Positions 9,626 through 38,481 of a DNA stretch of 41,818 nt are shown in pieces (the first letter of the stretch is position 1; the number at the start of each line of letters is the position of its first letter). The position numbers and the translations under genes were made by a program. This DNA is from Candidatus Omnitrophota bacterium. GTDB taxonomy: Bacteria > Omnitrophota > Gorgyraeia > Velamenicoccales > Velamenicoccaceae. The notes under the pieces were generated by a model. It was not told the DNA's origin. It did not search any database and saw nothing but the letters and a program-made list of their open reading frames with translations. The stretch lies in the NCBI GenBank assembly GCA_028717105.1, contig JAQUOM010000001.1, positions 1 through 41,818 of the forward strand. Reading direction: 5' to 3'.

Positions 9626-9626
9626 A

Positions 9627-10406
9627 TCAGATCCGTTTCAGAAGTTGAGGTTCAAACCGCCAAAAAATCCCCGCACCGCAACACAGGCTGCCCAGCGACC
9701 ACAGGACAACCTGCACAAAAACAAAAAGGTCCGGAACGCGGCCGAAAAAAAGAACGTCGCGGTAAAATGTGATAAAACCGGCCATGGGATTCATAACGCA
9801 GATCCACCGCAGGCCTTCGGGGATCATATCCGCAGAATAGAAAACCGGCGTCACCCACATCCAGAACATGAAGACGATGTCCAAAAGATGGCCGACGTCG
9901 CGGCAGAACACGTGGACAACCGAGAACAAAAGCCCCAGGCCGGCCGTGAAGACAAGAAACAGCAGCGAGACGAAGACGAACAAAAAAAACAACGGCAGGA
10001 CCCGCGGATTGAAATAGAGAAAAAGAGGGAGAAAAAACAGCCAGCCGATCAGGTAATTCAGAAAATGCGACAGGACGCAGGACGCGGGCAGCGTTTCCCT
10101 GGGGAGCCGAAATTGACGCAGGATATTCTGCTGGGACAAAAAGATCCGGGTCGCTTCGGATAATGCCGAGACAAAAAACATCCACGGAAACATCCCTGCC
10201 AGGACAAAAAGAGGAAAATCCCGCATCCGGACGTTAAAGATGGCCGTGAAGGCAAACACGACGCCCATAGTCAACAGGATCGGATTAAAGACGGCGAGCG
10301 AAATCCCCAGGACCGATCCGGCATAACGGACTTTCAGCTGCTTGACGGCCATGTCCAAAAAAACATGCCGGTAGCGGTAAAAATCTGCGATCTTGTCTTT
10401 GATCAC
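9627..10406 (-). CDS. wzm: Wzm/TagG-type ABC-2 polysaccharide export permease
   Basis: LKVRYAGSVLG, FCRDVGH, TPVFYS and MNPM motifs; about 6 TM segments. Probable GTG start at 10406. Confidence 0.9.
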   Translation of the reverse strand: MIKDKIADFYRYRHVFLDMAVKQLKVRYAGSVLGISLAVFNPILLTMGVVFAFTAIFNVRMRDFPLFVLAGMFPWMFFVSALSEATRIFLSQQNILRQFRLPRETLPASCVLSHFLNYLIGWLFFLPLFLYFNPRVLPLFFLFVFVSLLFLVFTAGLGLLFSVVHVFCRDVGHLLDIVFMFWMWVTPVFYSADMIPEGLRWICVMNPMAGFITFYRDVLFFGRVPDLFVFVQVVLWSLGSLCCGAGIFWRFEPQLLKRI

Positions 10407-10440
10407 CGCGATCTCGCTTCTTCTTTTGTGTAATCCGTCT

Positions 10441-11745
10441 TTAGCCGCCGTGATGCAACCGGCCGGCCAGTTCCCGGCCTTCGCGCAGGACGTCCTCCAT
10501 GGACGCATAGCGCCAGGCACCGTAGCGGCCCGCGCCGATGATGCCGTGTCTCGCCAAAAACGAAAGGACCGTCTGACGCGCCGACGCGTAGGCGCGGTCA
10601 TAAACCGGATAGCCGTAGACGATATCCTGGGTATCCATAAAAGAGACGGCTTTGCCCGCCGGCAAAAGGCCGGCCGCCGCTAAATCCCGCAATATCTTCT
10701 TCCTGAGCTGTCCCGGATGCGGCGGCCTGCCCGGCCGATAGGCGACTTCGAGAGAAACGGCATGGCGCGGCCGCCGGGCCTTTGAGACGGAGCGGCCGAG
10801 GGGAAAACCGGCCCGGAAAAAAGAAACATCCCTTTCGGGAAAATAAATCCAATGACAAAAACGGGGCGGCCTGCCTTCAATCCCCAGGTTCAGGTTCAGG
10901 ATGGAATTCCATTTCAGGCGGCGCAGAGCGGCCTCAACGGCCCGCGGGAGCTCCGTCATCAACGACAAGAGCTCCGGCAGGGGAATCGTCAAAACCAGCG
11001 TATCGTACGCTTCCCTGGCGCCAGACGCCAGCCGGACTTCTCTTTTCTTGAAATCGACGGCCCGGATGGCGCAGTGCGTAAAGACGCGCCGAAGCGGAGC
11101 GGCCAGGACCCGGGGCAATTCTTCGACGCCTCCGGCCTGCGGATACCAGAAAATATGATTATATCCCCACGCCTTCTTCTCCGGCCGGCCGGCGCCGGAA
11201 ATAATCTCCCGCAAGGGGGCGGCCGGGATCACGTCTTTCGCCCAGGCCGACGTCAATGTCCGTAAAGGGACTGCCCAGAATTTGGCATTGTAAGGTATCA
11301 AAAAATGCCTCGCAATGCCACGGCCGAATGTCTCTCTGGCCCAGGCGACAAAACCCTCGGCGTCGCCCGGCCTTTTCTTCTTTAAGGCGTCTCGCACGCC
11401 GGCCAGGCACTCCTCGACAACATCGTCCGGCATCTGCCGGAAATGCACCTGAAAAGGATAGGGGCTGTAACGGCCGAATGCGTAAAACAGCGCTTCCCTC
11501 TTGTAGCGCGTCAGGCGCCGTCCCAGGAGATGTTTAACGAGGGCGCCCGTCGAAGGGTCTTTGAAATGGAAGACGTGGCCGCCTGCATCGAAGACAAACC
11601 CGCCGACCCGGCGCGAACGGCACAGGCCGCCGACCCTCGCCTCCTTTTCGAACACAACAGGGTCCTGCCCCCGGCGATGGAGATGCCACGCCAGGCTCAA
11701 GCCTGTCAAACCGGCCCCTGCGATGACGATTTTTTTATAAGCCAT
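10441..11745 (-). CDS. FAD-dependent oxidoreductase (UDP-galactopyranose mutase-like / HemY-like family)
   Basis: IAGAGLTGL dinucleotide-binding motif, GGLCRS, FDAGGH, PYNAKFW, YGYPVY, GRYGAWRY. Polysaccharide-locus context. ATG at 11745. Confidence 0.8.
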   Translation of the reverse strand: MAYKKIVIAGAGLTGLSLAWHLHRRGQDPVVFEKEARVGGLCRSRRVGGFVFDAGGHVFHFKDPSTGALVKHLLGRRLTRYKREALFYAFGRYSPYPFQVHFRQMPDDVVEECLAGVRDALKKKRPGDAEGFVAWARETFGRGIARHFLIPYNAKFWAVPLRTLTSAWAKDVIPAAPLREIISGAGRPEKKAWGYNHIFWYPQAGGVEELPRVLAAPLRRVFTHCAIRAVDFKKREVRLASGAREAYDTLVLTIPLPELLSLMTELPRAVEAALRRLKWNSILNLNLGIEGRPPRFCHWIYFPERDVSFFRAGFPLGRSVSKARRPRHAVSLEVAYRPGRPPHPGQLRKKILRDLAAAGLLPAGKAVSFMDTQDIVYGYPVYDRAYASARQTVLSFLARHGIIGAGRYGAWRYASMEDVLREGRELAGRLHHGG

Positions 11746-11746
11746 A

Positions 11747-12730
11747 TCACGAAAAATGGGCAGCCTTCTTGCCGACGGCCAAGCTTGCCGACACAGCGCA
11801 GGCGACGGCCGAAAATCCAACGAGGCCCGACCCGGCGTGCCGGAACAAAAAGGCGCACGCCCCCCATAAAAAACACAAGCCCAGACAGACAAGAAGCACG
11901 CGCTGTTTGGAAAAACCGAGGCCGAGCAGCCTCAGACCCAAATGATCGGGGCTTTTATGAAAAGGATGAATGCCGCGGCGCAGGCGCATGCCCACCAGAT
12001 ATACCGTATCAAAAACGAAGAAACCGACGACGAGCAGAGGCGATGCCAAGCCCGTCCCCGTGCCCTCCGGCGCATAGGCGACCAGGAGGGCCAGGGCCCC
12101 CAGAAGGAACCCGATATAATGGCTGCCGGAATTGCCCATGTACATCCTGGCCGGCGGCCAGTTGAAGAGCAAAAAACCGGCCAGGGAAGCGGCCAGCATC
12201 GCGCACAAGAGAGCGGCGGCCGGCTGCGCCGGGCGCAGAGACAATGCGGCGAACCCAAGACACGCGAGCCCGGCCGAGACCCCCGCCAACCCATCCATGA
12301 CATCCAGAAGGTTCAAGGCATTGATCATCCACAGCATCCAGATGCCGGCCGCCAGAAAATCCAACGTGCCTTTCAACATAATGATGCCGGTCCGGGCCGC
12401 CAGAAAACACCACGCCGCGACGAAAACGATCTCAAAAACCAGTTTCTTTAACGCAGAAAAATTTTTCAGATCGTCGACAAACCCGAACAGGGCGATCCCG
12501 GCGGCCGGGATAAAAAGCCCCTTCCAAAACACGGCCGGCTGGGCCGCAGGAACGCGAAGGACGAAGGCCGCCGACAAAAATGCAACGGTAAGAACAACAC
12601 CGCCGGCGCACGGAACGCCGTTCACCGCCAGAAACCCGTATTTCAAGAAAACCCGGCGCAACACGAACGCCAGGACGACAGCAAAACAAAACGCCATCCC
12701 TGAAGACACTAAAAAATCGCCTATCTTCAT
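11747..12730 (-). CDS. WecA/TagO-like polyprenyl-phosphate HexNAc-1-phosphate transferase (MraY family)
   Basis: Highly hydrophobic. GFVDD, NALNLLDVMDGLA, FNWPPARMYMGNSG and HL near the C-terminus. Confidence 0.85.
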   Translation of the reverse strand: MKIGDFLVSSGMAFCFAVVLAFVLRRVFLKYGFLAVNGVPCAGGVVLTVAFLSAAFVLRVPAAQPAVFWKGLFIPAAGIALFGFVDDLKNFSALKKLVFEIVFVAAWCFLAARTGIIMLKGTLDFLAAGIWMLWMINALNLLDVMDGLAGVSAGLACLGFAALSLRPAQPAAALLCAMLAASLAGFLLFNWPPARMYMGNSGSHYIGFLLGALALLVAYAPEGTGTGLASPLLVVGFFVFDTVYLVGMRLRRGIHPFHKSPDHLGLRLLGLGFSKQRVLLVCLGLCFLWGACAFLFRHAGSGLVGFSAVACAVSASLAVGKKAAHFS

Positions 12731-12742
12731 CCGTGGACGCTC

Positions 12743-13879
12743 CTAAACAAGACCCTCGTATAAACGGCCGACGGCCTCTGTCGTACGGTGCAGCAGAAAA
12801 TTTTCACCCAGCGACCCGGCGGCCGCAGAACCTAACCGCTCCCGGCTCTCGCCGTCTCTCAAAAGAGACAACAATACGTCTCTCATCTTGTCGATATCTC
12901 CCACCGGGACAAGATGACCGTTCCGCCCTTCCACCACGACGTCCCGGACACCTCCCGTATCCGTCACCACGACGGGTTTCCTGGAAACCATCGCCTCAAG
13001 GACCGAAACAGGGAGCCCTTCCCAGTGCGACGTCAGCACAAAGACATCGAGCGCCTTCAAAAAACGGACGATATCCCTGCGCCAACCAAGCAAAAAGACA
13101 TCCTCGGCCAAACCCAACCGTTCCCTCATCCGCAGAACCTCGCTTTTAAGCCCTCCGTCTCCGACGAGAAGAAACTTCACGCCCGGGGCCAGCGGTTTGA
13201 CCGCATGCGCCAACATCAGGAAATCCTGCGGCGCCTTCTGCTTTTTGAGGCATGCGATACTGCCGACCAAAAGAACGTCTTCGTCGAACCCCAGCTCTTT
13301 TTTCAAAGAATTATCCCCGCATTCCCTTCTGAACCTCCCCGGGTCGATCCCGCAGGGAATCAGGGCATATTGCTCAGGCTTGCCGATGCCGCGTTCGATC
13401 CCCCGGCCCAGGTCACAGGACGAAACAACGATGATCTTATCGGTGATCTTCGCCGTCCATCGCTCGAGGCGTTCAAAAAAATCTCGCACCCAACCGGGCT
13501 GGCCGTCGCAAAAACTCCAGCCGTGGACCGTGTGCACGACGGCGCTCGTTACGGCCGCCCTGGCCGCCCATCGCCCGAGGATTCCGGCCTTGGAACTATG
13601 CGTGTGCACGATATCGATGGCGTGTTTTCGGATAAAAAAAACCATCTCGCAAAAAACCATGACATCACGCCAAAGGCACAAAGGACGGTCCAGGAACTTC
13701 GAAAAGACGACCCGCAGGCCCGGGATCGAAGACGCCTCTGAACACAACATCCCGTCTGCGGACGTGAACAAGAAGATATTGTAGCGTTCCTGGCCCAGCC
13801 CCCGGATCAGGTCCAAAAGATGCTTCTGGGCCCCTCCCAGCTCAAGCTTCGTAACAATATAGAGCAGATTCTTTTTCAT
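12743..13879 (-). CDS. Glycosyltransferase family 4
   Basis: LGGAQ, HTHSSKAG, HTVHG, EGLPVSVLEAM (EX7E). Confidence 0.93.
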   Translation of the reverse strand: MKKNLLYIVTKLELGGAQKHLLDLIRGLGQERYNIFLFTSADGMLCSEASSIPGLRVVFSKFLDRPLCLWRDVMVFCEMVFFIRKHAIDIVHTHSSKAGILGRWAARAAVTSAVVHTVHGWSFCDGQPGWVRDFFERLERWTAKITDKIIVVSSCDLGRGIERGIGKPEQYALIPCGIDPGRFRRECGDNSLKKELGFDEDVLLVGSIACLKKQKAPQDFLMLAHAVKPLAPGVKFLLVGDGGLKSEVLRMRERLGLAEDVFLLGWRRDIVRFLKALDVFVLTSHWEGLPVSVLEAMVSRKPVVVTDTGGVRDVVVEGRNGHLVPVGDIDKMRDVLLSLLRDGESRERLGSAAAGSLGENFLLHRTTEAVGRLYEGLV

Positions 13880-14097: not shown

Positions 14098-14126
14098 ATT
14101 ATACAACCTGCCCCCGTTCTTTTCAA
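14098..14126 (-). promoter_or_regulatory. Sigma70-type promoter for the polysaccharide operon
   Basis: Minus strand TTGAAA-17 nt-TATAAT in the AT-richer divergent intergenic region. Confidence 0.6.
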
Positions 14127-14255
14127 GGCTTTCCTGTTCCTCTTTCGGCCTGCCGAAAATCTTGTCATTTCGACGAGAAAAAGCAACGGCGGAACGGGCG
14201 CGGCACATCTCTTACGGCACGTTTTTTAACGGCCGGTCCGGCCCTCAATATTTGC

Positions 14256-14284
14256 TTGCTTAAACGTTCGGCTGGCTGTATGCT
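14256..14284 (+). promoter_or_regulatory. Possible sigma70-type promoter for the plus-strand gene at 14341
   Basis: TTGCTT-17 nt-TATGCT ending about 56 nt upstream of the ATG. Confidence 0.4.
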
Positions 14285-14340
14285 TTTTCTAAGAATCATG
14301 GGCCGGCCGGTATCGTGCCGGTCTTTAGCTGGGGATCAAG

Positions 14341-14991: not shown

Positions 14992-15019
14992 GCCTCTCAC
15001 CCTGACGCCCCCGCCGACC

Positions 15020-16414
15020 CTACCAATATCCTGCCTTCCTTAGCTTTCGTTTCAGCTCGTCGGAAAGTGCGATCTCGCAAATCAGGCCGTCCTGGTCCCT
15101 GGCCCCCTGGCGCCAGATCAAAAACTGTTGTAATAGGCCGGCACGCACGCCGGCCTCGCGCGCAACACGATCCCTCGTTTCTCCCGGATCCCTTCTGAGA
15201 TCATATAATGCACTCGCCCCGGGGGAACGCACCAGTTTCCAGCCGTCATCCCGCACGATAGCCCATTTTTCAAAAGAAGCCTCCGAGCAGACAAAAGCGC
15301 GGCGCAAAACGTTCTGCGGATATCTGATCAGGGAGACAAGGCTTTGGCCTTGCAGGCCGTCGTCGACAACCAGGCCCGCCAGGTCCAAGAGGGTCGGCGC
15401 AACATCCGCCTGGGCCGCAAGAGACGCGATCCTTCGGCCGTCCGACGGAATCCCGGGCCCCCGTAAGACGAGCGGAATATGAATGACCTCCTGATAAAGA
15501 TTCTGGTTCCCAAACCTGTCGAAGGTGCCGCGCTCTCCCAGCTCTTCGCCGTGGTCGCCAAGGACAACGATAATCGTCGTCTCATAAAGACCGAGCCTCT
15601 TGAGTTCCCCGATCAAAACCCCCAGCGATGCGTCAAAAGACCTGAGCGCGCCGTCGTAACGGGCGCGGATATGGTCAAGGTCCCCGCGATCCAAAAATAC
15701 CTGCCGGCCGCCGTAAGACAACGCGAGCCCCTTGATCTTTTTGAGTGTCTCATAGCCCAGCTCGGCATCACGGAAAACCCCCTCATAGGAAGGGTCAAAA
15801 AAATCTCCGAGAGAAACACGATAGGGTGGATGCATATCATAGGTATGTAAAAAAAGAAAAAACCTTCCCCGCCGGCGGGCTGCCATCCATCGGACCGCCT
15901 CCGGCAAGATATCGGCAAAAGAACCCGCGGGGCGGTCTTCGTATTCGAAGATGCGATACACATCGAACCCCCTGTCGAGCCCATAAACGCCGAGCGTGTC
16001 TAATCCACACGCAAAAGCCGCTGTCGCATACCCTTGAGCCTTAAAGAATTCGGCCATCGTTTTTTCATCGGGTTTCAATTTCAGGCGGCGCGAATCCACC
16101 TGGTGGGCGCAGACGTATTGCGAGGTAAAAACAGTAACGAGATTGGGAAGAGTCCAGTGCGAGGCGGCGACGGCCCGCTCAAAAACCACCCCTTCCCGGG
16201 CCAGCCGGTCCAGATGGGGCGACGTCTCGCGGCCGTAACCATAACACCCAAGGTGGTCCGCGCGCAAGGCGTTAACCATAACGACCAGGACGTTGGGCCC
16301 TTCGGACGTATCGCCCGAGGCCGCCGGGGCTTGGGCCGCGGCGAGGAAAAAAGCGCAGCAGGCCGACAAAAAAATAATCGGCGCAATGCTAATAAACCGA
16401 CCCGAGCTCGTCAA
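15020..16414 (-). CDS. Sulfatase-like (alkaline phosphatase superfamily) exported protein
   Basis: NALRADHLGCYGY, SHWTLPN, DMHPPY, GDHGEE, WKL..LYDLRRDPGE. Start approximate (TTG 16414). Confidence 0.85.
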   Translation of the reverse strand: MTSSGRFISIAPIIFLSACCAFFLAAAQAPAASGDTSEGPNVLVVMVNALRADHLGCYGYGRETSPHLDRLAREGVVFERAVAASHWTLPNLVTVFTSQYVCAHQVDSRRLKLKPDEKTMAEFFKAQGYATAAFACGLDTLGVYGLDRGFDVYRIFEYEDRPAGSFADILPEAVRWMAARRRGRFFLFLHTYDMHPPYRVSLGDFFDPSYEGVFRDAELGYETLKKIKGLALSYGGRQVFLDRGDLDHIRARYDGALRSFDASLGVLIGELKRLGLYETTIIVVLGDHGEELGERGTFDRFGNQNLYQEVIHIPLVLRGPGIPSDGRRIASLAAQADVAPTLLDLAGLVVDDGLQGQSLVSLIRYPQNVLRRAFVCSEASFEKWAIVRDDGWKLVRSPGASALYDLRRDPGETRDRVAREAGVRAGLLQQFLIWRQGARDQDGLICEIALSDELKRKLRKAGYW

Positions 16415-17861
16415 GCATCGCCGCTTCCACCCGCGCAGGGCCGCGTCCCGCGAGATTCCGTTTTTCTTTTGGATCTTCTCTGAGATCATAAAGCTCGAAG
16501 CCGCTTTCCCGCGGCAAAGAAATAATGGCATAGTTATGCATCTGTACTGTCGCCGGCCAGGGCCGGGACCGGTCCGGGTCCATCTTGAAAAAATTCCCTA
16601 TGAGCTTCCAGGCGGTTGTCCTGACCATGACAACCCTGTTTTCAATCCCTTCTTTTTCGCTCTCGCCCAAGAGGCATTCGGCATACGCAAACGGCCGCGC
16701 ACCCTCCTTTTCCCGGCCCTCGATCAGGGGGACCAGGCTCCTGCCGTCCCTGGGGACTTCATCCCTGACGCCGAGAAAATCCAGAACAGTCGGGAAAACG
16801 TCGATCATCTGGACCTGGCTCTTGATACGCACGCCTCGACGTTCCAGCCCCGGGTGCACGATGATCAAGGGCACGCGTACTTCTTCGTCGTGAAGGCTGA
16901 AGCCATGAAGAAACATGGGGCCGCGATCACCCAATATCTCTCCGTGATCGGACAAAAGAACAATGATCGTCTTGCCGAGCAGGCCCCGCTCTTCCAGCGC
17001 GCGCACAAAGGTGCCGACATACCCATCCGCATATTTGATCCCGCCGTCGTAATGCGCGACGATGTGCCGCATCTCCCGGCGGGTCCGGGTAAAATTATTC
17101 TTATGAAAAGAGGGGTTCGCCGACGAAAGATATTCGTCGTCCAGGCGGCCGCGATAGGAAGGATCGAAAAAGTTCTCTTCGGGCGATTCATAGGGCTCAT
17201 GGATATCGTTAGCGTGAAGAAAAACAAAAAACTTCCGGTCGGCGTGCTTCCCGATCCAGTCAAGGGCTTGCGGCAGGGTCTTCTCAAATGACGGCTCCCG
17301 GTCAGAGGGTAACGCGTCTCCGGCATCCCCGTAACAATAATCTTCAAAACCCTGGCCGAGGCCGAATCGGGGATCAAGCTGGAGGGCATTGTAGATGAAT
17401 GCCGCCGTGGCGTAACCGTTCTGCTTCAATATCTCCGCCAATGTCAACTCTTCCTGCGACAAGCAGCGCTCGATACGGTCAACCTTGTGTTTATGGACAT
17501 ATTTCGAAACAAACAACGATGCGTGGCTGGGCAGGGTAAAACTGGACGGCGCGATCGCCCATTCGAAGAGGATGCCGCGGCGCGCCAGGGCGTCGATATG
17601 AGGGCTCGTGTCCCTGGAATAACCGTAACAACCCAGATGGTCGGCGCGCAGGGTATCTAAAAGAATGAAAACCAGGTTATACGGCCCGCCCTTGCCGGCG
17701 TCTTTGCGTACGGGCGCCTCCCGGGCAAAACAACAACGAGCGGCGGCGCTTAAAAAAAACACCCCGATCAAAACGGCTGCCTGCCGCTTCGGGAAGCGCG
17801 GCCGGAACCGCTGCCCGCCGCCGGCGCCGCCCCTAGAAACCCTTGTCTTTTCTGTGATCAC
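16389..17861 (-). CDS. Sulfatase-like (alkaline phosphatase superfamily) exported protein
   Basis: DTLRADHLGCYGY, SSFTLPSH, DIHEPY, SDHGE, LYDLREDPKE. Start approximate (GTG 17861). Confidence 0.85.
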   Translation of the reverse strand: MITEKTRVSRGGAGGGQRFRPRFPKRQAAVLIGVFFLSAAARCCFAREAPVRKDAGKGGPYNLVFILLDTLRADHLGCYGYSRDTSPHIDALARRGILFEWAIAPSSFTLPSHASLFVSKYVHKHKVDRIERCLSQEELTLAEILKQNGYATAAFIYNALQLDPRFGLGQGFEDYCYGDAGDALPSDREPSFEKTLPQALDWIGKHADRKFFVFLHANDIHEPYESPEENFFDPSYRGRLDDEYLSSANPSFHKNNFTRTRREMRHIVAHYDGGIKYADGYVGTFVRALEERGLLGKTIIVLLSDHGEILGDRGPMFLHGFSLHDEEVRVPLIIVHPGLERRGVRIKSQVQMIDVFPTVLDFLGVRDEVPRDGRSLVPLIEGREKEGARPFAYAECLLGESEKEGIENRVVMVRTTAWKLIGNFFKMDPDRSRPWPATVQMHNYAIISLPRESGFELYDLREDPKEKRNLAGRGPARVEAAMLDELGSVY

Positions 17862-17902
17862 GAACCGCCCCGTTCCTGCCGCATCCCTTGACAAGACCTG
17901 CT

Positions 17903-19822
17903 TCACCAATATCCTTCTTGCCGAAGCCTCTCTTTGGCCTCCTCGGACAAGATGACGGTATTGTCCGGGTCTTCGCGGACCACTTCCCGGCGCCACACCT
18001 GCAAGGCCTGGGTCAGCTGGTAAACGACCTCCGGATGCTGCAAGGCCACGTCGTCTTCCTGGAACAGGTCCTCGCGGTAGCGGTAGAGCCGGCACCCCTG
18101 GCTTTCAGAAAACATTTTCCATCCGGGAGTCAACACCACCCATTCCCGCGGGGCCAGCCTTGAGAAAAAGCGATCTTCGGCGGCCGGCGCCCTCTTTCCT
18201 TCTGCCGGCGGCGCGGCAACCCCTGCGGCGGCCAGGAGCCCTTCGTCCCGCAGTCCCTGATGGACAGCTTCAGCCCAAACCTCGTTCCCTTTTTCGCTCA
18301 GCCGCAAATAGAGATCGGGATGAAAAAGAGCGTCCTGATCGGAGGCCTTGTTGAACGCCTCGTAGACGTTGATCATGGGGATCTGAAGCTGACGGCAGGC
18401 ATCCTCAATGATGAGGACCTGATCAAAAAAAGTAGCCATGTTTTCAACAAGAAAAACGAACTTGTATTTTTTAGAAACCTCTGCGATCCGCTCCAGATTG
18501 TATTTCATCTGCGCGCCGAAAATGAGATAACCGTCGGGAAGCATCACGTCCTGGGCTGCCCCCTTGGCCTTGAGAGATTTTTTGATGCGTTCGATGAAAT
18601 TCCAGGGCTTGGCCTTTTCCCGGTAGAAGATCTCCGCCCGCCGGGGAATAGGCGCACCCGCCGTCCTGGCGCAGAGAAGCGTTTTATCTTTCTGCGCGGC
18701 CAGGACCGCCTCGTAAAAATCAAGACGGATCAAATGGTCCAGCCACTCCGGCGTCAGGGAAAAACAAGCCTGGATGACGGCGGCAGCCTGCTCGTAATCT
18801 CCGGCGAGCGCATGCTTGTCGGAAAGGGCCAGCGGCCGCTGAAGAGCAAACGCCCCGTCGTCTTGGGTCCGCACCAGCTTCTCGATAGTATTCCGGACCC
18901 CTGAAATAAATCCCGGGTCTGCCGCCATCATGCGCTTCTGGGTCTCCAGGGCCTGAGGGTATCGCCCCAGGGAGATCTCATACCAGAAAAGGTCGGCGTA
19001 ATATTCTCCCCTGCCGGGATCTCTTTTGACCGCCTCTTCCATATACTGCGCGGCAGGCCCGTAGAGCCCCTGATCGGCGAGGACGCGGGCAAACTCGACG
19101 AGATCGCCGACCGCCGGCGCGCCTTCGCTGAACTTTCTGTTGAAATGACGTATCCGTGTCGCATAAATACCGTCCATTTCGTCGGCCAAAGAACGCACGG
19201 CAAAGATTTCCTGGGGCAGGGTTTCCATGGGCTTTCCCCTGACGGCATCGGCGAAGATCTCCGCGATCTGATAGACTTTCGAGGCATGGATGACCCTCTC
19301 AAAATGCAGCTTCAACCGGCCCCACGGCGACAGATATTCCCTGGCGGACAATAAAAGGTTCTTATCGTGCTTCTCAACCCTTTCGTTCACGTTAAAAATG
19401 ATGATATCGGGACGATACCGGCGGACGATGGTGTCAAGATGATAGACGAAATGGGAAAGATTCTTGCCTCGCATGCCTCCGTTAAAAACCACGAAAGAAT
19501 TCCCGGGATAGGCACGCTCGAGGATCCGGCGCAGGAGACTCGGATAGGCGTCTTGCGGATCGACACCGACGCCGGTCGTATAACAGTTGCCCAAACAGAG
19601 GATGCGGACCGCGCCGGGCCTCTCGGCCGACACGGCGGGATTTTTCTTGCGGGCTTCCCCGAAGGCCTGCAGGCCAAAAGCCGCCAGGCGCAGACCGGCC
19701 TCCAGGAGGATCCAGGAGAAAACAATCCCTAAAAGGACATAGGCCGCCTTGGCCGCGCCGTAACGCGCCGCGTGCGCCCAGCCCGCGCGGTCCGAAGGTA
19801 AAAAAGAAAAAAGCTTTTTCAT
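17903..19822 (-). CDS. Membrane-anchored SGNH-like protein with TPR insertion and a sulfatase-like C-terminal tail
   Basis: N-terminal TM ending LEAGLRL; block I-like ILCLGNCYTTG; VFNGG; RYRPDIIIF; TPR-like helices; block V-like LFHPDLYLRLSEKGN. Confidence 0.7.
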   Translation of the reverse strand: MKKLFSFLPSDRAGWAHAARYGAAKAAYVLLGIVFSWILLEAGLRLAAFGLQAFGEARKKNPAVSAERPGAVRILCLGNCYTTGVGVDPQDAYPSLLRRILERAYPGNSFVVFNGGMRGKNLSHFVYHLDTIVRRYRPDIIIFNVNERVEKHDKNLLLSAREYLSPWGRLKLHFERVIHASKVYQIAEIFADAVRGKPMETLPQEIFAVRSLADEMDGIYATRIRHFNRKFSEGAPAVGDLVEFARVLADQGLYGPAAQYMEEAVKRDPGRGEYYADLFWYEISLGRYPQALETQKRMMAADPGFISGVRNTIEKLVRTQDDGAFALQRPLALSDKHALAGDYEQAAAVIQACFSLTPEWLDHLIRLDFYEAVLAAQKDKTLLCARTAGAPIPRRAEIFYREKAKPWNFIERIKKSLKAKGAAQDVMLPDGYLIFGAQMKYNLERIAEVSKKYKFVFLVENMATFFDQVLIIEDACRQLQIPMINVYEAFNKASDQDALFHPDLYLRLSEKGNEVWAEAVHQGLRDEGLLAAAGVAAPPAEGKRAPAAEDRFFSRLAPREWVVLTPGWKMFSESQGCRLYRYREDLFQEDDVALQHPEVVYQLTQALQVWRREVVREDPDNTVILSEEAKERLRQEGYW

Positions 19823-21219
19823 CAGCGGCCTCCCCGCTTATCCCCGAACCCCAGATAACAACGCCGGAACTCAGCGACCAGTTTATCGCGAACCCCGGAT
19901 TCTTCCGGGAACAGATTATGACGCTCTGCCGGATCCGTCGAAAGATCGAATAGCACAAAAACAGGATAATCGAACCGGACAAAACGGGCGATGAGCTTTC
20001 TGCTGCCCCACCTGACGGCAAAAATACACTGCCACAACGACTCGGAGTTGCGCGGATTCGAGCTGGCGGCATAAACGAACCTCTCAGGGATACGGCCCTT
20101 TCCCTCCAGATACGGACGCAAGCTCAGGCCCCGCGCGTCTTTTTTTGGCGGGAGGCCCAAACAGTCTAATATCGTCGGCACGATATCGACGGATTGGGCC
20201 GGCCCGTCGATCCGGCGCCCCCCGGCCTTCAATCCCGGATGGACAATAATCAGGGGGATACGGACAGACTCCTGATAGGGATCGACGCAGGAATTGTTAA
20301 ACAAGGTACCGTGATCCAGGAGGTCGACGCCGTGGTCCGCCGTGACGATCAGAATAGTCTCTTCCCACAGTCCTCTCTCCTTCAACGCCGCCGCCAACCT
20401 GCCGATATAGCCGTCTACGGTGAAGACCGACGCATCATAATGGGCCCTGATATGCTCGATGTCCTTCTGCCTTAAAACCGTACAGCCTTCCTCGTTCGCA
20501 CAGAACGAATAACCCCAGAGCTCCTTTCTCAAAGGCAAGTCCAGAACCATCTTGTCGACAACGCCGTGATAATCCCGATCGAACATGTTTTCATCCTGGT
20601 CCCCCTTCTGGGCGTGCAGAGGAGCGTGGGCATCGTTAATATGCAAGAGGAGAAAAAATTTTTCGTTGCGATGGGCATCGACCCACTCCACGACGCGCGG
20701 AAAGAATTCCGAGATGTGCGCTTCCGGCTGGGGCCATACCGTCTTGATGAAAGGGACATCTTCGTAATGGTTAAAACCCTGATAAAAATTAAAACGCCGG
20801 TTCATGTGGACATTGGAGGTAAAGGCCCCTGTCTCATAACCGAAGATCTTGAGGATCTCCGCAATGGTCAGCTCTCCTTCGGGAAGGCTGAGCCGGTCGT
20901 TGATGACCTTGTGTTCGAAGACATAACGGGAGGTCAAAAGCGACGCAAAACTCGGCAGGGTCCAGGTCGCCTGGGAGGTCACGTCAAGAAAAAGCACGCC
21001 TTCCTGGGCCAAAGCATCGATGGCGGCGCTGGTCGGCCGGCTGTACCCGTAACACCCTAGATGATCCGGCCGCAGGGAGTCGATGACGACGAGAATAACG
21101 TTATAGGGTTTCTTGGGCGCGGCCCCTGCCTCGGGAACGATACAGGCCGCCCAAAAAAAGATACCCGCCGCGATGACGCTTCTTGTTGCGCAAAAAAACC
21201 GCCTCTTTTTCTGTAGCAT
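19822..21219 (-). CDS. Sulfatase-like (alkaline phosphatase superfamily) exported protein
   Basis: DSLRPDHLGCYGY, ATWTLPSF, DAHAP, ADHG, FDLSTDPAE. ATG 21219 preceded by GGGAGAG, then a signal peptide. Confidence 0.87.
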   Translation of the reverse strand: MLQKKRRFFCATRSVIAAGIFFWAACIVPEAGAAPKKPYNVILVVIDSLRPDHLGCYGYSRPTSAAIDALAQEGVLFLDVTSQATWTLPSFASLLTSRYVFEHKVINDRLSLPEGELTIAEILKIFGYETGAFTSNVHMNRRFNFYQGFNHYEDVPFIKTVWPQPEAHISEFFPRVVEWVDAHRNEKFFLLLHINDAHAPLHAQKGDQDENMFDRDYHGVVDKMVLDLPLRKELWGYSFCANEEGCTVLRQKDIEHIRAHYDASVFTVDGYIGRLAAALKERGLWEETILIVTADHGVDLLDHGTLFNNSCVDPYQESVRIPLIIVHPGLKAGGRRIDGPAQSVDIVPTILDCLGLPPKKDARGLSLRPYLEGKGRIPERFVYAASSNPRNSESLWQCIFAVRWGSRKLIARFVRFDYPVFVLFDLSTDPAERHNLFPEESGVRDKLVAEFRRCYLGFGDKRGGR

Positions 21220-21256
21220 CTTCTCTCCCTTGCCGTCCCGCCCTAAAACACCGGCA

Positions 21257-21430
21257 TCAAAACAAGCTGTAAAGAAATGCCGTCCTTTCATAACGCATCG
21301 CATACAAAACAGCATAAAGCCCGATCAATAAAGCCAGAAGTAACGACGTGAGCCACCATGTTTTCTGGGCCCAGATCTGCCGGACCGCGCGCCGGACAAA
21401 CGAAACACACGCCTGGATCCGCTGCCTCAT
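21257..21430 (-). CDS. 57-aa single-TM peptide ending FLYSLF (DltX-like / DUF5989-like acyl-shuttle candidate)
   Basis: Not in the ORF track. Translation: MRQRIQACVSFVRRAVRQIWAQKTWWLTSLLLALLIGLYAVLYAMRYERTAFLYSLF. Its ATG overlaps the TGA of the adenylation gene (ATGA). Confidence 0.8.
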   Translation of the reverse strand: MRQRIQACVSFVRRAVRQIWAQKTWWLTSLLLALLIGLYAVLYAMRYERTAFLYSLF

Positions 21431-23049
21431 AATCCCTCCTTCTCCATCAGGGCTTGCCGATCGACTTTGCCGGTGGATGTGCGCGGCAAAGAATCCCTGA
21501 ACTCAAAATCGTCCGGCACCATATAAGACGGCAAGTGGCGCAGGCAATAATTCCTCATCTCTTCTTCGCCAAAAGCGGCGTTTTTCGCCGCGACCAAAAC
21601 AGCCCTGATCCGCTTCCCCCCATCCCCTCCGTCGACAAAACACAGACAGGCCTGGCCTATGGCCGGATGGCGATAAAGGACGGATTCGATCTCGCCGAGC
21701 TCGATACGGTATCCCCGCTGTTTGATCATGCCGTCGCGCCGGCCGCGCAGGACAAAATTTCCGTCTTCATCCTCAACGGCCATATCACCGGTCTTAAAAA
21801 ATCTCTCCTGCGGCGCCGGCGTGATCCCGCGGACAAAGGCCCTCTCTGTCTTCTGCGGGTCGTCCCAATAGCCCTCCATCAGGGTCGGACCGGCCACATA
21901 CAATTCTCCTGTCTCGCCGGCCCGGACAGACCCGCGTTTCTCGTCGAGGAGGAAAACCTTGTCTCCGCAACACGGCCTGCCGATCGCAAGAGCGGCGCCG
22001 GGCGGCCGCGGGCGTTCGACACGATGGTACATGCACACATTGGTCTCGGTAGGCCCGTAAAGATTATAAAAAACGGCATGCGGCGCCAGGCGCATCCACT
22101 GATCCAGATATTTGTCCGCAAAGACCTCTCCGGCGAACAGGATCCTGTTCAATGCGCTTAAGTCCCTCGTTTCCAGGCGGCCATGAAGAGCCATCTGGAC
22201 GAGGGGATGTGGCACGGAATACCACACGCTGATCCGCTCCTGTTCCAAAAATTCGGCCAGAGAGGACGGAAAAGCCGAAAGACCCGCAGGGACAAGACAG
22301 AGGCACGCGCCGGCCTTGGCGGTGACGAAAACATCGAAAATGGAAATATCAAAATGGAGGGGCGCGTGGGATGCAACGCGGTCTGCTTCGGAGACGCCGA
22401 AACACGAATGGGCCCAGTCAACAAAAGCCAGGGCGGCCCGGTGCGAGATAACGACCCCTTTCGGCCGGCCCGTCGATCCCGATGTATAAAGAATATAGGC
22501 CGTATCATTTTCTGATCGGCGCGGGGCGCCTGCCGGGGTCTCTGCGGCCCCGGAAACCCCGTTGTCCGGGACGGCTAAAATCTGAATACCGCACCCTTCG
22601 GACCGGCGAAGCATATCCGGCGCGGGCGTGCCTAACGTAAAAATGAACCGGGGATTTTTCTGGCGACGGGCGGCCTCCATCAAGCCCTCCAGTTTTTGGC
22701 ACGACGTCACGACCGCATCAAGACGGCAATCCTCGATGATGCAAGACAGACGGATGGCGGGATCCATGGGATCCAAAGGAACATAACAGGCCCCAGCCTT
22801 GAGGATCCCGAAAACAGCAACAACGGCCGGCGGCGACTTTTCGACAAAAATGCCGATACGGCTGTTCTCGCCTAAACCCCGCCCGCGCAAGGCGCATGCC
22901 AGGCGTCCGCTAAGAAGATCCAGCTCGCCATAAGACATCTCCTGGCCGCGAAATCTCAAAGCCGCGGCTTCGGGACGGGCCTGGACCGAACCTTTAAGGA
23001 CATCTTCCAGGCGGCGGACTTCCTTGTCTTTACGGAGCTGTTTCACCAT
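21427..23049 (-). CDS. Stand-alone amino-acid adenylation enzyme, proline--carrier protein ligase-like (PltF/RedM/CloN4/AnaC type)
   Basis: YILYTSGSTGRPKG, HFDISIFD, WYSVP, LFAGEV, NLYGPTETNVC, KTGD, GYRIELGEIE, TGKVDR. Probable ATG at 23049. Confidence 0.88.
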   Translation of the reverse strand: MVKQLRKDKEVRRLEDVLKGSVQARPEAAALRFRGQEMSYGELDLLSGRLACALRGRGLGENSRIGIFVEKSPPAVVAVFGILKAGACYVPLDPMDPAIRLSCIIEDCRLDAVVTSCQKLEGLMEAARRQKNPRFIFTLGTPAPDMLRRSEGCGIQILAVPDNGVSGAAETPAGAPRRSENDTAYILYTSGSTGRPKGVVISHRAALAFVDWAHSCFGVSEADRVASHAPLHFDISIFDVFVTAKAGACLCLVPAGLSAFPSSLAEFLEQERISVWYSVPHPLVQMALHGRLETRDLSALNRILFAGEVFADKYLDQWMRLAPHAVFYNLYGPTETNVCMYHRVERPRPPGAALAIGRPCCGDKVFLLDEKRGSVRAGETGELYVAGPTLMEGYWDDPQKTERAFVRGITPAPQERFFKTGDMAVEDEDGNFVLRGRRDGMIKQRGYRIELGEIESVLYRHPAIGQACLCFVDGGDGGKRIRAVLVAAKNAAFGEEEMRNYCLRHLPSYMVPDDFEFRDSLPRTSTGKVDRQALMEKEGL

Positions 23050-23059
23050 GTTTTGGGTT

Positions 23060-24214
23060 CTAAAACTGGAGGAGCCCTTCAAAACCGGCCACCATATCCA
23101 GGAGGACCTCGGAGGTGCCGGAATACAACGTACTGGCCAAGGCGTCCCGCAACTCGCGCTCAACACCCGACTCCGTCATATAGCCATACGCGCCGTAGAT
23201 CTGGAGGAGGTCCCGGCAATGACGAACATAGGTTTCGCTTAAAGAAATTTTGGCCATCGCCGCTTCCAGAACACAAGAAGCCCCGGCGTCTTGGCGTGCT
23301 GCAGCCCGGTACAACAACAACCGGCTCTCTTCCAGATCAATTCTCATCCGCGCGATTCTGTGCGTCAGGGATTGGCGTTTGCTCAAAGCAACGCCGCCGA
23401 TCTTCCTGGCCGAGACAAAACGGCGGCATTCCTCAAGCAAGCGTTCCCTGATACCGATACTATTGGCCAGGATAAAGGTCCTCTCCTGTTCCATGATCGC
23501 CTGGAAGACGACGGCCCCGTTCCCTTCGCGGCCGACAATATTCTCTTTGGGAACACGGCAGTCGCAGAAAGACACATCCGCCATCGGGCTGGTCCTGAGC
23601 CCCATTTTTTCGACGGCCGCGCCGACGCTCAAGCCCGGCGTGTTTCTCTCGACGAGAAAACACGTCAGGCCGCAAAATTTCGTGCCGCGGCCCGTGCGTG
23701 CCAGGACAATAAAAATATCGGCGACCGGGGCGTTCGTCACGAAAGCCTTGCTGCCGTTAAAAACATAGGACGCCCCCTCGGGCCTGGCTGTCGTCTTGAG
23801 GCCGAAAACATCCGACCCCGATTCAGATTCTGTCGCTGCCAAAGCGCCGACAAGAGACCCGTTGCCCAGGCCTTTAAGGAACCGCGTCTTCTGCCGCGGC
23901 GTTCCAAAACGGTATATCGGCCCCACACATCCCCAGAGATGGGCATTGATGGAAAACAAAAGTCCATTATCCCTGGCCCCGACGCCCATGCCTTCCAGCA
24001 CGGCGGTCATGTCGAGGGCCCCCAGAGACAAGCCGCCGTAGCGGCGCGGCAGAAACATTCCCTGGAGACCAAAATCCGCGCACGCCTGCCATCCGTCGCG
24101 GGAAAACACGCCCGACCTGTCGTTCTCCTCTGTGTCATAGCGCAGTTTTCCCGAGGCAAACCGGACCGCGGCCTCTTTAAGCTCCTGTCGTTTCTTTGAC
24201 CAAAAAGGATTCAT
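23060..24214 (-). CDS. Acyl-CoA dehydrogenase family, prolyl-carrier-protein dehydrogenase-like (PltE/RedW/CloN3/AnaB type)
   Basis: DNGLLFSINAHLWGC, TESESGSD, NGSKAFVTN, KMGLRTSP, EQERTFILA, YGAYGY, YSGTSE. ATG 24214 overlaps the upstream stop (ATGA). Confidence 0.88.
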   Translation of the reverse strand: MNPFWSKKRQELKEAAVRFASGKLRYDTEENDRSGVFSRDGWQACADFGLQGMFLPRRYGGLSLGALDMTAVLEGMGVGARDNGLLFSINAHLWGCVGPIYRFGTPRQKTRFLKGLGNGSLVGALAATESESGSDVFGLKTTARPEGASYVFNGSKAFVTNAPVADIFIVLARTGRGTKFCGLTCFLVERNTPGLSVGAAVEKMGLRTSPMADVSFCDCRVPKENIVGREGNGAVVFQAIMEQERTFILANSIGIRERLLEECRRFVSARKIGGVALSKRQSLTHRIARMRIDLEESRLLLYRAAARQDAGASCVLEAAMAKISLSETYVRHCRDLLQIYGAYGYMTESGVERELRDALASTLYSGTSEVLLDMVAGFEGLLQF

Positions 24215-25182
24215 GAGCGTGGACATGGGGTATGTTTCTTTTCTACGCGGGCAAAAAGCTCTGAACAAAAAAGACAGCGTTCGCAAACGCCGTCGCACGA
24301 CCATTTTTTCTCAAGCAATCCCTCCAGCTCCCTGTTAGGGACAATAAACAACGCCGCCAGAGGGGAGTCGAACAGCTGGATGTAATTTCCTTCGAACCGT
24401 CCTTCGGCATAGGCGCGAACCCGTGAAATCAGGTCTTCGACGGGAACAAGCCGCCCGACGATCTTGTAATCATCGACCAGCCCCTCATAAAAATGCAAGT
24501 CCTCGGGGCGGATGACCGTATTAGCCAATAGCAAGTACGGATCCCGAAGATAAACCTTCTTGCATGCGGCATGGTAATCCATTTCTTCGTTCGAATGGGC
24601 GTAATGGCTGTGATGGAACCTGCGCCACGGGCAATCCCTCAGGCACGGTTCATTCACGAGGATCCTCACCCTGGCTGCACAGAGCGCCTGTTTGATCTGC
24701 CGCAGCCGGGCGGGAACCATATTGACGTTGATGGAGACCGCGATCACATCGGCACCCAGTTTTTCATAATAGCGCGCGGCCTGGGGCGTGGTAATTTCGC
24801 AGATCGTCGAAGCCGTGATCCTCATGTCCGTCTCCGACCGCACCATATCCATCAGGAACGGATGGCTGACGACGACACGGTCGACCCCGGCGGCGTCGAG
24901 ATCTCGGAGGTAGGCCCTGATCCCATGCCACCACTCAGTCCGGGACTTGGCCTGAAGACCACAGGGGGCGTTGAGGGCCACCTCGAATTCAACATTCCCG
25001 GCATGGGCCGCCTCGATCTGAGGCGCCAGAGACTCCAGGGAATCGGCATACTGCGGCCGGCCTCCGGCGATCTTGCCGGCGAGACCGCCCGTGTAGACAG
25101 ACGTCACCTGCGCGCAGGAATCCAGAATCCTGCGCAAGTCCTCGAGCCGGCCGCTGTAACCGACCACGAACCCTTTTTTCAT
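24211..25182 (-). CDS. Peptidase U32 family Fe-S protein
   Basis: GGRP, LNAPC, STIC, LVNEPCLRDCPWR, IRPEDL, KIVGR, C-terminal CDGVCERCLFC. Confidence 0.78.
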   Translation of the reverse strand: MKKGFVVGYSGRLEDLRRILDSCAQVTSVYTGGLAGKIAGGRPQYADSLESLAPQIEAAHAGNVEFEVALNAPCGLQAKSRTEWWHGIRAYLRDLDAAGVDRVVVSHPFLMDMVRSETDMRITASTICEITTPQAARYYEKLGADVIAVSINVNMVPARLRQIKQALCAARVRILVNEPCLRDCPWRRFHHSHYAHSNEEMDYHAACKKVYLRDPYLLLANTVIRPEDLHFYEGLVDDYKIVGRLVPVEDLISRVRAYAEGRFEGNYIQLFDSPLAALFIVPNRELEGLLEKKWSCDGVCERCLFCSELFARVEKKHTPCPRS

Positions 25183-25421
25183 GCGGCCTTCCTCTGTTTC
25201 TTCCTGACCACGCCGGCGATCTTGGACAACGTATCGAAATTCGTTATCGTGATCTCGCTCATGTCGACAGAAACCCCAAACCGCTTCTCCAAAAAGGCCA
25301 GAAGCAAAATAAACCTCATGGAATCAAGGACACCCGTCTCAAATAAAGGGGTATCGTTACCGAATCCCGCCGGGGGCTTCCCGAAACTTGTTTCAATAAA
25401 ATCTCTGATCTGATCTTCCAT
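25179..25421 (-). CDS. Acyl/peptidyl carrier protein (DltC/PltL-like)
   Basis: 80 aa; GVLDSM phosphopantetheine site; NFDTL motif; SD AGAGGAG before ATG 25421. Confidence 0.9.
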   Translation of the reverse strand: MEDQIRDFIETSFGKPPAGFGNDTPLFETGVLDSMRFILLLAFLEKRFGVSVDMSEITITNFDTLSKIAGVVRKKQRKAA

Positions 25422-25446
25422 GTCGCCGCTCCTCTGTGTGATGTGT

Positions 25447-25475
25447 ATTCTATCAACGTTCCCGGGGGGTGTCAA
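25447..25475 (-). promoter_or_regulatory. Near-consensus sigma70 promoter upstream of the ACP gene
   Basis: Minus strand TTGACA-17 nt-TAGAAT with extended TGn. The -35 box is flanked by an inverted repeat GGGGGGT/ACCCCCC (25464-25482). Confidence 0.7.
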
Positions 25476-25532
25476 ACCCCCCTCATGCGCTTCGTCGGAA
25501 TGCGCCGGCCGCAAACAAGCCTCCAGGCGGCC

Positions 25533-26747
25533 TCACCAGGATAACGGCCCTGAGCCGGCCGCAGGAGAGGCAGAAAACATGCGGCGCGCAATAACGACGA
25601 ATTGTTCGAACTCAACCTGGAACAGGATCATCCCGAAACTGACGAACGTAAAGGTCAAGAACACGGCGAAAGGGCCCAGCCAGGGAGCCTGTGTCACCCG
25701 CAGAAGAAAAGGGTGTTTTCTTTTGATATCCTGAAAAAAAGACCACGCCAGGAGGCCTGACCCGTGATACACCCCCAGAAGAAAAAAACTCATAGAGAAC
25801 CTGTGCCACATCATCGAAGCGACCAGCGTGGCGACGATCCCTATCTCCATCTTGATGCGGGAAGCCCTGTAGCCGAACAAAGGCAGGAAAAAATAATCCC
25901 GCAGCCAGCTGTAGAGCGTGATGTGCCAGCTGCGCCAAAAAAGGGCGATATTCTTTTTCAAAAACGGCGCGTTGAAATTTTCGGAAATCTTGTAACCAAA
26001 GAGGCGCGCGCTCCCGATGGCCATGTCGGTATACCCTGAGAAATCCGCGTAAACCTGGATGGCGGCCCCGTACATGGCGCCGACGAGGACCCAGCGGGGG
26101 TACTCGTCGGGAGACTGGAAAACGGGCACCACAAAAGTCCTCAGGACGTCGGCCACAAAGGCTTTCTTGACGACGCCCCGGACCATGCGGTAGAGTCCCG
26201 CCTGAACGCCGGCTAAAGAAACCGCTGTTCCGGCGTGCGCCTGCCCCCAGAAAGAACCGAACCGCTCCAGAGGGCCGGCCGGGAATGTAGGAAAAAAAAC
26301 AAGGTAGTGCAAAAAACCAACGGGGGAAGACGGGGGCATGGCATGGCGATAACACTCGACGAGATAATGGATCAGACGGAAGATCGTAAAGGATATCCCG
26401 AGCGGAAGGACAAACTCCTGAGCCCATGACGTCCAGACGCTGCCCTGATACACACTTCGCTGGAAAACTTTATAGGCACAAAGCGACCCGACCAGAAGAA
26501 ATAAAACAGCAAGAAATGCGGGGAGTTTCCGCCGGCGGTCTGTTTCCAGCGACAAGCTTCTGCCGATGTAAAAAACGGCCAGGCCGGCGGCGATGAGGAA
26601 CAACGCATAGAAGGCCGCGCTGGCAGAGATAAAAACAAGGCTGCAAAAGAAAAGAAAAAGGACCCGGTAACGGCCAGGGACGATCGTCCCGTATGCCAGG
26701 GCGGAAACCGCCAACAATAAAAGATAAACCGGGCTTAAAAACGACAC
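25533..26747 (-). CDS. MBOAT family O-acyltransferase (DltB/AlgI-like)
   Basis: LPLGISFTIF, FFPTFPAGP, YADFSGYTDMAIG, ENFNAPF, FWRSWHITL..WLRDY, MMWH (catalytic His position). Confidence 0.93.
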   Translation of the reverse strand: MSFLSPVYLLLLAVSALAYGTIVPGRYRVLFLFFCSLVFISASAAFYALFLIAAGLAVFYIGRSLSLETDRRRKLPAFLAVLFLLVGSLCAYKVFQRSVYQGSVWTSWAQEFVLPLGISFTIFRLIHYLVECYRHAMPPSSPVGFLHYLVFFPTFPAGPLERFGSFWGQAHAGTAVSLAGVQAGLYRMVRGVVKKAFVADVLRTFVVPVFQSPDEYPRWVLVGAMYGAAIQVYADFSGYTDMAIGSARLFGYKISENFNAPFLKKNIALFWRSWHITLYSWLRDYFFLPLFGYRASRIKMEIGIVATLVASMMWHRFSMSFFLLGVYHGSGLLAWSFFQDIKRKHPFLLRVTQAPWLGPFAVFLTFTFVSFGMILFQVEFEQFVVIARRMFSASPAAGSGPLSW

Positions 26748-26790
26748 GATGGTTCATCTCCTCTCGGGGGGCGCGCGCCAAAGCGTGATC

Positions 26791-38469: not shown

Positions 38470-38481
38470 AACTCCTCCGGA

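Follow-up and report, generated by a model that had tools for sequence, protein, structure and literature searches.

A Dlt-like acyl relay next to a predicted proline-oxidizing donor cassette in an Omnitrophota genome

We analyzed a stretch of 41,818 nucleotides from Candidatus Omnitrophota bacterium (assembly GCA_028717105.1, contig JAQUOM010000001.1), hereafter called the window, which is the whole contig C1 of a 1.6-Mb genome that is 93% complete. On its minus strand, running from 26747 to 17903, lies a gene cassette with intact frames that combines an acyl relay resembling the Dlt system of teichoic acid D-alanylation with enzymes resembling those that oxidize carrier-bound proline. We consider it somewhat probable that carrier-bound proline is oxidized to pyrrole-2-carbonyl, perhaps with hydroxylation by a U32-family protein, and that the group is exported via an MBOAT protein, Tyr54 of a small membrane peptide and Cys80 of an SGNH-fold protein to a surface glycan; both the product and the acceptor are predictions. 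The initial annotation of this DNA had likewise proposed that an oxidized prolyl unit passes through the MBOAT to an extracytoplasmic polymer. Substrate code, dehydrogenase clade and gene linkage support this interpretation.

Six core genes are co-oriented in the order MBOAT, carrier, U32 protein, dehydrogenase, stand-alone adenylation (A) enzyme and peptide ending in FLYSLF, and our gene calls agree with the initial annotation on this point (Table 1). The description of the genes as mostly joined by ATGA overlaps holds for three of the five core junctions, but not for MBOAT and carrier (111-nt gap) or for dehydrogenase and A enzyme (10-nt gap). The motifs WYSVP, LFAGE, GPTETNVC and GLLFSINAHLW reported before are all present, and ExER reads EQER.

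The substrate of the donor half is indicated by the A enzyme. When its pocket region was searched, PltF came out on top with 116.5 bits, 46 bits ahead of PigI (70.2 bits), and the best DltA reached 59.1 bits. Using a position scheme which we take to be that of GrsA, we read the ten-residue code as DIFYLALVCK. It is identical at 8 of 10 positions to PltF (DLLYLALVCK), at 7 to PigI (DLFYIAWVCK) and at 4 to DltA (DLMVLCTVAK; all reference codes from alignments), and the closely similar DLFYLALVCK is the commonest code among the linked A domains (31 cases). The two DltA models of NCBIfam remained below their cut-offs (275 of 476 and 260 of 560 bits), so that D-Ala specificity was not found. At the sequence level the enzyme is a stand-alone A domain of the proline type, nearer to PltF than to DltA as had been anticipated, and its code strongly predicts specificity for L-proline. 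The carrier possesses the attachment Ser and scores 39.5 of 68 bits with the DltC model.

The dehydrogenase fits to this substrate. Its best match in the PDB is AnaB (4IRN, 339.5 bits), followed by 6CXT/Bmp3 (276 bits) and PigA (270 bits), with the next acyl-CoA dehydrogenase at 241 bits. Among NCBIfam models, PigA (354 bits) and RedW (348 bits) scored highest. An alignment of 30 sequences shows Glu244 in all of them. The protein therefore falls into the clade of prolyl-carrier dehydrogenases and retains the catalytic Glu, which confirms its earlier placement. Two named proteins among its close homologues are labelled as Omnitrophota.

The relay half starts with a short MBOAT, in which W314-H315 is invariant in 22 clade members and which has a catalytic His and no FxYxxF fused to its C-terminus. 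That motif is found at the end of the separate membrane microprotein. F52 and Y54 are invariant in 17 aligned peptides, which had been selected for the motif. According to the accessible text of PMC12148441, the Tyr of the FXYXXF motif is the residue that bears the acyl group in DltX and PatA. The peptide of the window matches DUF5989 (PF19451) weakly over its full length (14.5 bits, cut-off 27; E 0.038), which places it outside the family proper, and has no Pfam DltX match; the corresponding peptide of locus L011 has a weak one (E 0.0015). Among 25,515 stop-to-stop segments of at least 35 aa in the genome only five have FxYxxF ends, and, as judged by eye, only that of the window is preceded by a hydrophobic stretch. 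The predicted complex of MBOAT and peptide scored 0.67 and the best of three controls 0.00. In a benchmark, 116 of 157 solved pairs reached this mark, as against 2 of 215 mismatched ones; for the alignments used here these counts are only rough. Contacts agreed to at least 95% between runs, the partner pLDDT was at least 73, and the predicted interface includes residues 314–316 of the MBOAT and 49–55 and 57 of the peptide. The favorable score of the model may reflect likeness to DltB/DltX.

Shuttle peptides of this kind grade from DltX-like (L011) to DUF5989-like (window, L152 and genome G338, described below). They were located at 21257-21430 of the window, at L208:12386-12538 and L152:2316-2480, and in L069, L070, L072 and L082. 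True DUF5989 peptides adjoin SGNH and carbamoyltransferase genes, and DUF5989 may also be a Tyr shuttle.

We then looked at the linkage of these genes in other genomes, taking the best 80 of at least 584 dehydrogenase loci in GTDB genomes. An MBOAT was present in the fetched flank of 24 of the 80 loci, three of the short type (L011-L013) and 21 divergent and often fused to SGNH; the profile for the divergent type was built from 10 of the same 21 loci it counted. With FabF as query a ketosynthase (KS) match was obtained at 3 of the 80 loci, a search that distant synthases may escape. In a scan with the short MBOAT, 24 metagenome loci matched closely, at E 1e-89 or better, and 56 others less closely. 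Many of the close loci lie on short contigs; a carrier gene is nevertheless found in 22 and a separate FxYxxF peptide in 15 of them. The other 56 loci have no carrier match, and in 54 the motif ends just downstream of the MBOAT, as for a fused tail (frames not individually checked). All eight dehydrogenases located beside a short MBOAT (window, L011, L012, L013, L091, L093, L112, L114) form one clade (SH-like support 99, FastTree, 92 rows). This clade is linked to the MBOAT in all eight loci, from at least three phyla. Each locus has a shuttle-type peptide, that of L013 ending in FKYQGY, and six of the eight have an A domain with proline code. Conserved linkage to an MBOAT and a YxxF peptide, a check suggested by the initial annotation, is hence present in seven other loci.

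The reverse association is looser. The dehydrogenase is present in no more than 3 of the 24 close MBOAT loci. Elsewhere there is an AMP ligase of 585 aa, alone or together with a methyltransferase, a fusion of radical SAM and ligase, or a B12 radical SAM enzyme, and in some loci no donor gene is visible. In the MBOAT tree the proline cassettes occur at four separate places. The MBOAT of the window is sister to that of G338 (98/94), with a long branch and odd composition flagged. The tail of the G338 locus resembles that of the window in having a sulfatase, a peptide ending in FIYSLF, an SGNH protein with Cys and Arg at the same places and two further sulfatases, whereas its donor genes encode a B12 radical SAM enzyme, a carrier and a radical-SAM-ligase fusion. 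Since the tail is the same and the donor genes differ, the window corresponds to a G338-type relay plus a proline cassette. The donor cassette thus looks swappable, as related MBOATs are accompanied by different donor enzymes. The radical-SAM-AMP-ligase fusion is seen as an alternative donor cassette with the same MBOAT clade at L103:11435-13879, L110:11463-13895 and L208:8319-10757.

The U32 protein, encoded within the cassette, is rich in Cys. Its 70 homologues are nearly all 43–59% identical. In 67 aligned homologues C180, C184, C207 and a C-terminal CxxxCxxCxxC are invariant and E178 is nearly so, i.e. the U32 domain has its conserved Glu and Cys ligands. We know of no U32 protein that acts on a carrier-bound substrate. 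The core motif is shared with U32 Fe-S hydroxylation proteins of the RlhA/UbiU type; from these the protein differs as a separate subfamily of ~320 aa with the additional CxxxCxxCxxC. In RlhA, hydroxylation depends on Fe-S and prephenate and requires Glu and Cys of the U32 domain (E161, C169, C176), as stated in the available part of PMC5727448. Oxygenation of carrier-bound proline has a precedent in the N-hydroxypyrrole pathway of ChmG/H (bioRxiv 2024.01.24.577118, in part), in which ChmG is a flavin enzyme, unlike the U32 protein. No U32 match was found in the fetched flanks of the seven other linked loci, so the protein is either optional or a passenger. Neither 400 genomes of the phylum (best E 3e-35) nor plasmids contained a close homologue, and a search at E 1e-80 of 351 genomes of the phylum of G423, gave no match but is uninformative for want of a positive control.

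Taken together, the following mechanism can be proposed. The A enzyme would adenylate L-proline and load it onto the carrier, and the flavin dehydrogenase would oxidize the prolyl-S-carrier, most likely by four electrons, to the pyrrolyl-S-carrier, the extent of oxidation being predicted. As an optional step the U32 protein might hydroxylate the ring without O2 or help in the second oxidation. By analogy to DltB/DltX and PatA and from the modeled complex, His315 of the MBOAT would move the acyl group through the inner membrane and onto Tyr54 in the peptide. The SGNH-fold protein would finally take it over on Cys80 as a thioester and transfer it to a periplasmic or surface glycan. In the whole scheme this acceptor-side step is the least secure and also the most unusual.

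Several observations count against this scheme, and we discuss them together with the explanations they favor. The eight linked loci include two pairs of close kin and therefore represent about six lineages rather than eight. For the dehydrogenase, the scores with PigA and RedW stay below the curated cut-offs of 500 and 650 bits, and the closest solved relative is AnaB by 63 bits. AnaB is a two-electron enzyme. The exported unit could accordingly be a pyrroline-carboxyl group or plain prolyl, an aminoacylation closer to Dlt, and the window contains no halogenase that would mark a pyrrole intermediate. The top match does not fix the product, however, since RedW, PltE and Bmp3, which carry out the four-electron oxidation of carrier-bound proline to pyrrole, have the catalytic Glu in common with AnaB (bioRxiv 2024.01.24.577118, accessible part); for the same reason pyrrole and pyrroline are not separable from sequence. 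Furthermore, 13 of the 80 related dehydrogenase loci have a halogenase family, among them the MBOAT loci L028, L044 and L085. Such halogenases act on pyrrolyl-carriers. From chemical reasoning a pyrroline ester is also expected to be unstable outside the cell, and we regard export of a pyrroline or prolyl unit as quite unlikely.

For the SGNH-fold protein the initial annotation of a membrane-anchored SGNH-like protein was right in position and fold, but the Ser and His of the DltD type are replaced by Cys80 (GNC in place of GDS in block I) and Arg507 (block V). The AlphaFold model (pLDDT 77.5) has an N-terminal helix and a TPR insert. Foldseek returned TPR matches only; the SGNH fold was recognized by VIA-align with 2VPT (Z 17.6, rmsd 2.4, 176 aligned). 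Homologues were obtained with a full HMMER search, a word-index search having given none. By motif match G-x-C occurs in 29 of the best 150 SGNH matches (block I was found in 124), and Arg replaces His in 23 of the 27 rows covering block V in an alignment of the top 30. A His-Pro motif (His501) six residues before Arg507 is common in the subfamily. We rejected mere decay of the gene because the Cys/Arg changes are common to the subfamily. An adaptation to pyrrole was rejected as well: G338 has a Cys/Arg SGNH with another cassette, and the other proline-linked loci have SGNH proteins of the His type and, where read, of the Ser type. The best Cys-type matches among the 400 genomes come from G338 and G374, both with a short-clade MBOAT, which lies 6.4 kb from the SGNH gene in G338 and on a separate small contig in G374. 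The Cys/Arg SGNH travels with the relay and not with the proline genes.

Pyrrolyl transfer by this protein is weakened by the fact just mentioned that other proline-linked loci use His-type proteins. In addition, the Cys80/Arg507 protein is the only SGNH-like one found in the genome, and in the literature searched there was no precedent for Arg in place of His. In favor of the scheme, TviD, the O-acetyltransferase of the Vi capsule, resembles it by description in its SGNH fold, Cys nucleophile, TPRs and polysaccharide substrate, and so provides an example of a Cys-type SGNH protein that acylates a polysaccharide. TviD retains the catalytic His, however, has its TPRs at the C-terminus and is described in the accessible text without mention of an MBOAT partner (PMC8760489). 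With the same relay and donor, the Cys/Arg SGNH could instead be a non-catalytic scaffold, the acyl group going from Tyr54 to a lipid, a protein or a small secreted molecule, either directly or via one of the Thr-type sulfatase-fold proteins. The prevalence of Arg in the subfamily would fit to this, as would the sulfatase-fold genes flanking the SGNH gene in the window and in G338, the sulfatase-like tail of the SGNH protein itself and the lack of nearby glycan genes in two of the eight linked loci. On the other hand, Cys is kept at the nucleophile position throughout a divergent subfamily, which suggests chemistry, His501 could replace the base, and glycosyltransferases lie near five of the eight loci. 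We judge such a different last step unlikely. The sulfatase-fold gene between peptide and SGNH gene, which travels with the relay as well, is 41% identical to the G338 gene just before its shuttle peptide. Altogether five genes of the sulfatase/alkaline-phosphatase fold flank the cassette (15020-30769); in four of them a [WF]TLP motif puts Thr in the place of the Cys or Ser of sulfatases, and these proteins may be transferases rather than hydrolases.

A bolder version of our reading would see the locus as one example of a platform, in which a single Dlt-like relay serves exchangeable donor cassettes of natural-product type. Here the U32 protein would supply hydroxypyrrole without oxygen, and a Cys/Arg SGNH of undescribed catalytic type would pass it from Tyr ester to Cys thioester and onto a surface glycan. 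As a whole this is quite unlikely.

As to the acceptor of our preferred reading, genes for a GT4 glycosyltransferase, a WecA-like transferase, Wzm and Wzt lie 4–11 kb downstream of the cassette, and glycosyltransferases occur in the fetched flanks of five of the eight linked loci. The flanks of L011 and L012 have no glycan genes, which is a further point against, and that of L013 has a sugar dehydratase only. The acceptor is likely a glycan, perhaps, judging from proximity, the product of the WecA/GT4/Wzm/Wzt genes. The initial annotation had noted that no polyketide synthase (PKS), condensation or halogenase gene is present. This is correct for the 30 main ORFs of the window with Pfam and NCBIfam, so that no downstream acceptor of the PKS or nonribosomal peptide synthetase (NRPS) type exists in the cluster, and the genome, 93% complete, yielded no condensation domain. 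The genome does, though, contain a type II PKS-like set with two KS genes, a carrier, two cyclases and an MFS exporter on the short contig C98 (L213, G000:C98:1-5805), another observation that does not favor us. The pyrrolyl-carrier might prime this PKS, or a synthase in the missing part of the genome, with the MBOAT being a bystander. Considering that the C98 set has its own carrier, that dehydrogenase clade and MBOAT occur together in every linked locus, and that tblastn with the FabF of the genome gave no KS match in the seven other loci, we hold this to be very improbable.

The cassette was not found in four genomes of the same genus that were searched. No orthologue of the dehydrogenase exists in 60 close relatives, of which 26 have only generic acyl-CoA dehydrogenases (31–35% identity). 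In the 400 genomes of the phylum it occurs twice, as part of a full cassette in G186, a genome of the same class, and with carrier and A enzyme in G288, where no MBOAT was found. This distribution, the long MBOAT branch and the altered SGNH triad could point to a decaying, recently shuffled and non-working island. Against it, the frames are intact, the other enzymes retain their catalytic residues and the SGNH changes are those of a whole subfamily, leaving decay with very little probability. Near-identical DNA is present in landfill metagenomes of two studies, and no RNA data set is among the matches listed. Single contigs of ~14.6 kb from two runs span 13145-27781 and 15002-29578 and cover the cassette, for which no frameshift is listed from them. 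Both runs belong to one study, one possibly being the source of this DNA, and a run of the second study covers the region piecewise. The genome also encodes a phosphopantetheinyl transferase and a pair of electron transfer flavoprotein (ETF) subunits.

The remaining features are listed in Table 1. The start of the carrier gene was chosen downstream of an AGAGGAG site. The promoter match in front of this gene is a lead only, because 13 such sites occur in 19.5 kb compared to 8.1 +/- 3.0 in shuffled sequences. No tRNA was found in the window. Upstream of the cassette (33982-41793) are genes for two methyltransferases, two B12 radical SAM enzymes, a nucleotidyltransferase-APS kinase fusion, a protein of the amidinotransferase/deiminase fold and a sulfotransferase, which suggests a sulfated, methylated product. 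A 1170-aa fusion of B12 radical SAM, GT2 and radical SAM/SPASM is encoded at 811-4323, and the Wzt gene (6899-9625) has ~650 C-terminal residues without Pfam match.

Table 1. Features of the cassette and its surroundings in the window
Feature	Position	Strand	Evidence
MBOAT, short DltB type, 404 aa	25533..26747	-	Pfam MBOAT 1e-16; NCBIfam dltB 165 bits (cut-off 375)
Sigma-70-like promoter match TTGACA-17-TAGAAT, extended -10, in gap 5' of carrier gene	25447..25475	-	11/12 match
Carrier protein, 80 aa	25179..25421	-	PP-binding 3.5e-9; attachment Ser in GVLDSM
U32-family protein, likely Fe-S; candidate tailoring oxidase/hydroxylase	24211..25182	-	Pfam U32 5e-11, above cut-off
Prolyl-carrier dehydrogenase, PltE/RedW/PigA/Bmp3/AnaB type, Glu244	23060..24214	-	PDB and NCBIfam matches
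Stand-alone PltF-type A enzyme, code DIFYLALVCK	21427..23049	-	Pocket-region search and code extraction
DltX/DUF5989-like membrane peptide, 57 aa, end F-L-Y54-S-L-F; predicted acyl shuttle	21257..21430	-	Motif alignment; DUF5989 E 0.038; predicted complex
Sulfatase-fold protein, WTLP, Thr at nucleophile position	19822..21219	-	Pfam Sulfatase
Membrane-anchored SGNH-fold protein, TPR insert, Cys80/Arg507, sulfatase-like tail	17903..19822	-	AlphaFold model, structure alignment, subfamily motifs
Two more sulfatase-fold genes	15020..17903	-	Pfam
GT4, WecA-like initiating transferase, flavin oxidoreductase, Wzm, Wzt; candidate acceptor-glycan genes	6899..13879	-	Pfam, NCBIfam; link from proximity only

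Two other arrangements were noticed among the related dehydrogenase loci. In many Acidobacteriota the dehydrogenase, A domain and carrier lie within polysaccharide clusters with Wzz, export and sugar-transferase genes and further A domains but no MBOAT (L024, L025, L051, L053, L057, L059, L061, L064, L066, L075 and similar; L064 with a condensation domain), possibly a second route to pyrrole-bearing glycans. In the Verrucomicrobiota loci L020, L021, L036, L043 and L048 a prolyl-type dehydrogenase is followed by ETF subunits, in four of the five together with an Fe-S oxidoreductase.

Compared with known systems, the locus resembles DltXABCD of Firmicutes teichoic acid D-alanylation as described in the accessible text of PMC12148441, with a stand-alone A enzyme, a carrier, a short tail-less MBOAT, a separate FXYXXF microprotein and a membrane-anchored SGNH protein. 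It differs in the proline code, the added dehydrogenase and U32 protein, and the Cys/Arg and TPR insert of the SGNH protein; all Dlt models of NCBIfam score below cut-off, and the host is probably a diderm without teichoic acid. Judged by its genes, the locus would thus work like Dlt but is not a member of it, because the substrate code and the SGNH Ser/His differ, and its donor half is a trio of the PltF/L/E type without a synthase. The trios PltF/L/E, RedM/O/W, PigI/G/A, Bmp4/1/3 and AnaC/D/B have the same A pocket, carrier and dehydrogenase with catalytic Glu, but in the window the MBOAT relay adjoins where PKS, NRPS or a KSIII-like acceptor is absent from the locus. PatA/PatB and AlgI/J O-acetylation follow the same logic of MBOAT, Tyr shuttle and SGNH in diderms, differing by an acyl-CoA donor and a fused shuttle. 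Pathways other than Dlt are stated in the part of PMC12148441 accessible to us to be without carrier and without DltX-like microprotein. The window has both, unlike PatA/PatB and AlgI/J, and a carrier and separate microprotein outside Dlt would contradict that statement. In the literature searched, whose coverage excluded most subscription papers and all supplements, we found no publication on a proline/pyrrole MBOAT system. To the related loci the window adds the cassette exchange relative to G338, the Cys/Arg SGNH subfamily and the insertion of the U32 protein.

If our reading is true, a natural-product starter pathway is used here to decorate the envelope with a heteroaromatic acyl group, and MBOAT/Tyr-shuttle chemistry would extend past acetyl and D-alanyl. 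It would also account for many prolyl-dehydrogenase clusters that lack a PKS, considering the MBOAT in 24 of the best 80 loci. The Cys/Arg SGNH subfamily and the carrier-linked U32 protein each pose a question of enzymology. Finally, a swappable donor cassette suggests a way, speculative as it is, in which uncultured bacteria could vary their surfaces, e.g. against phages or predators.

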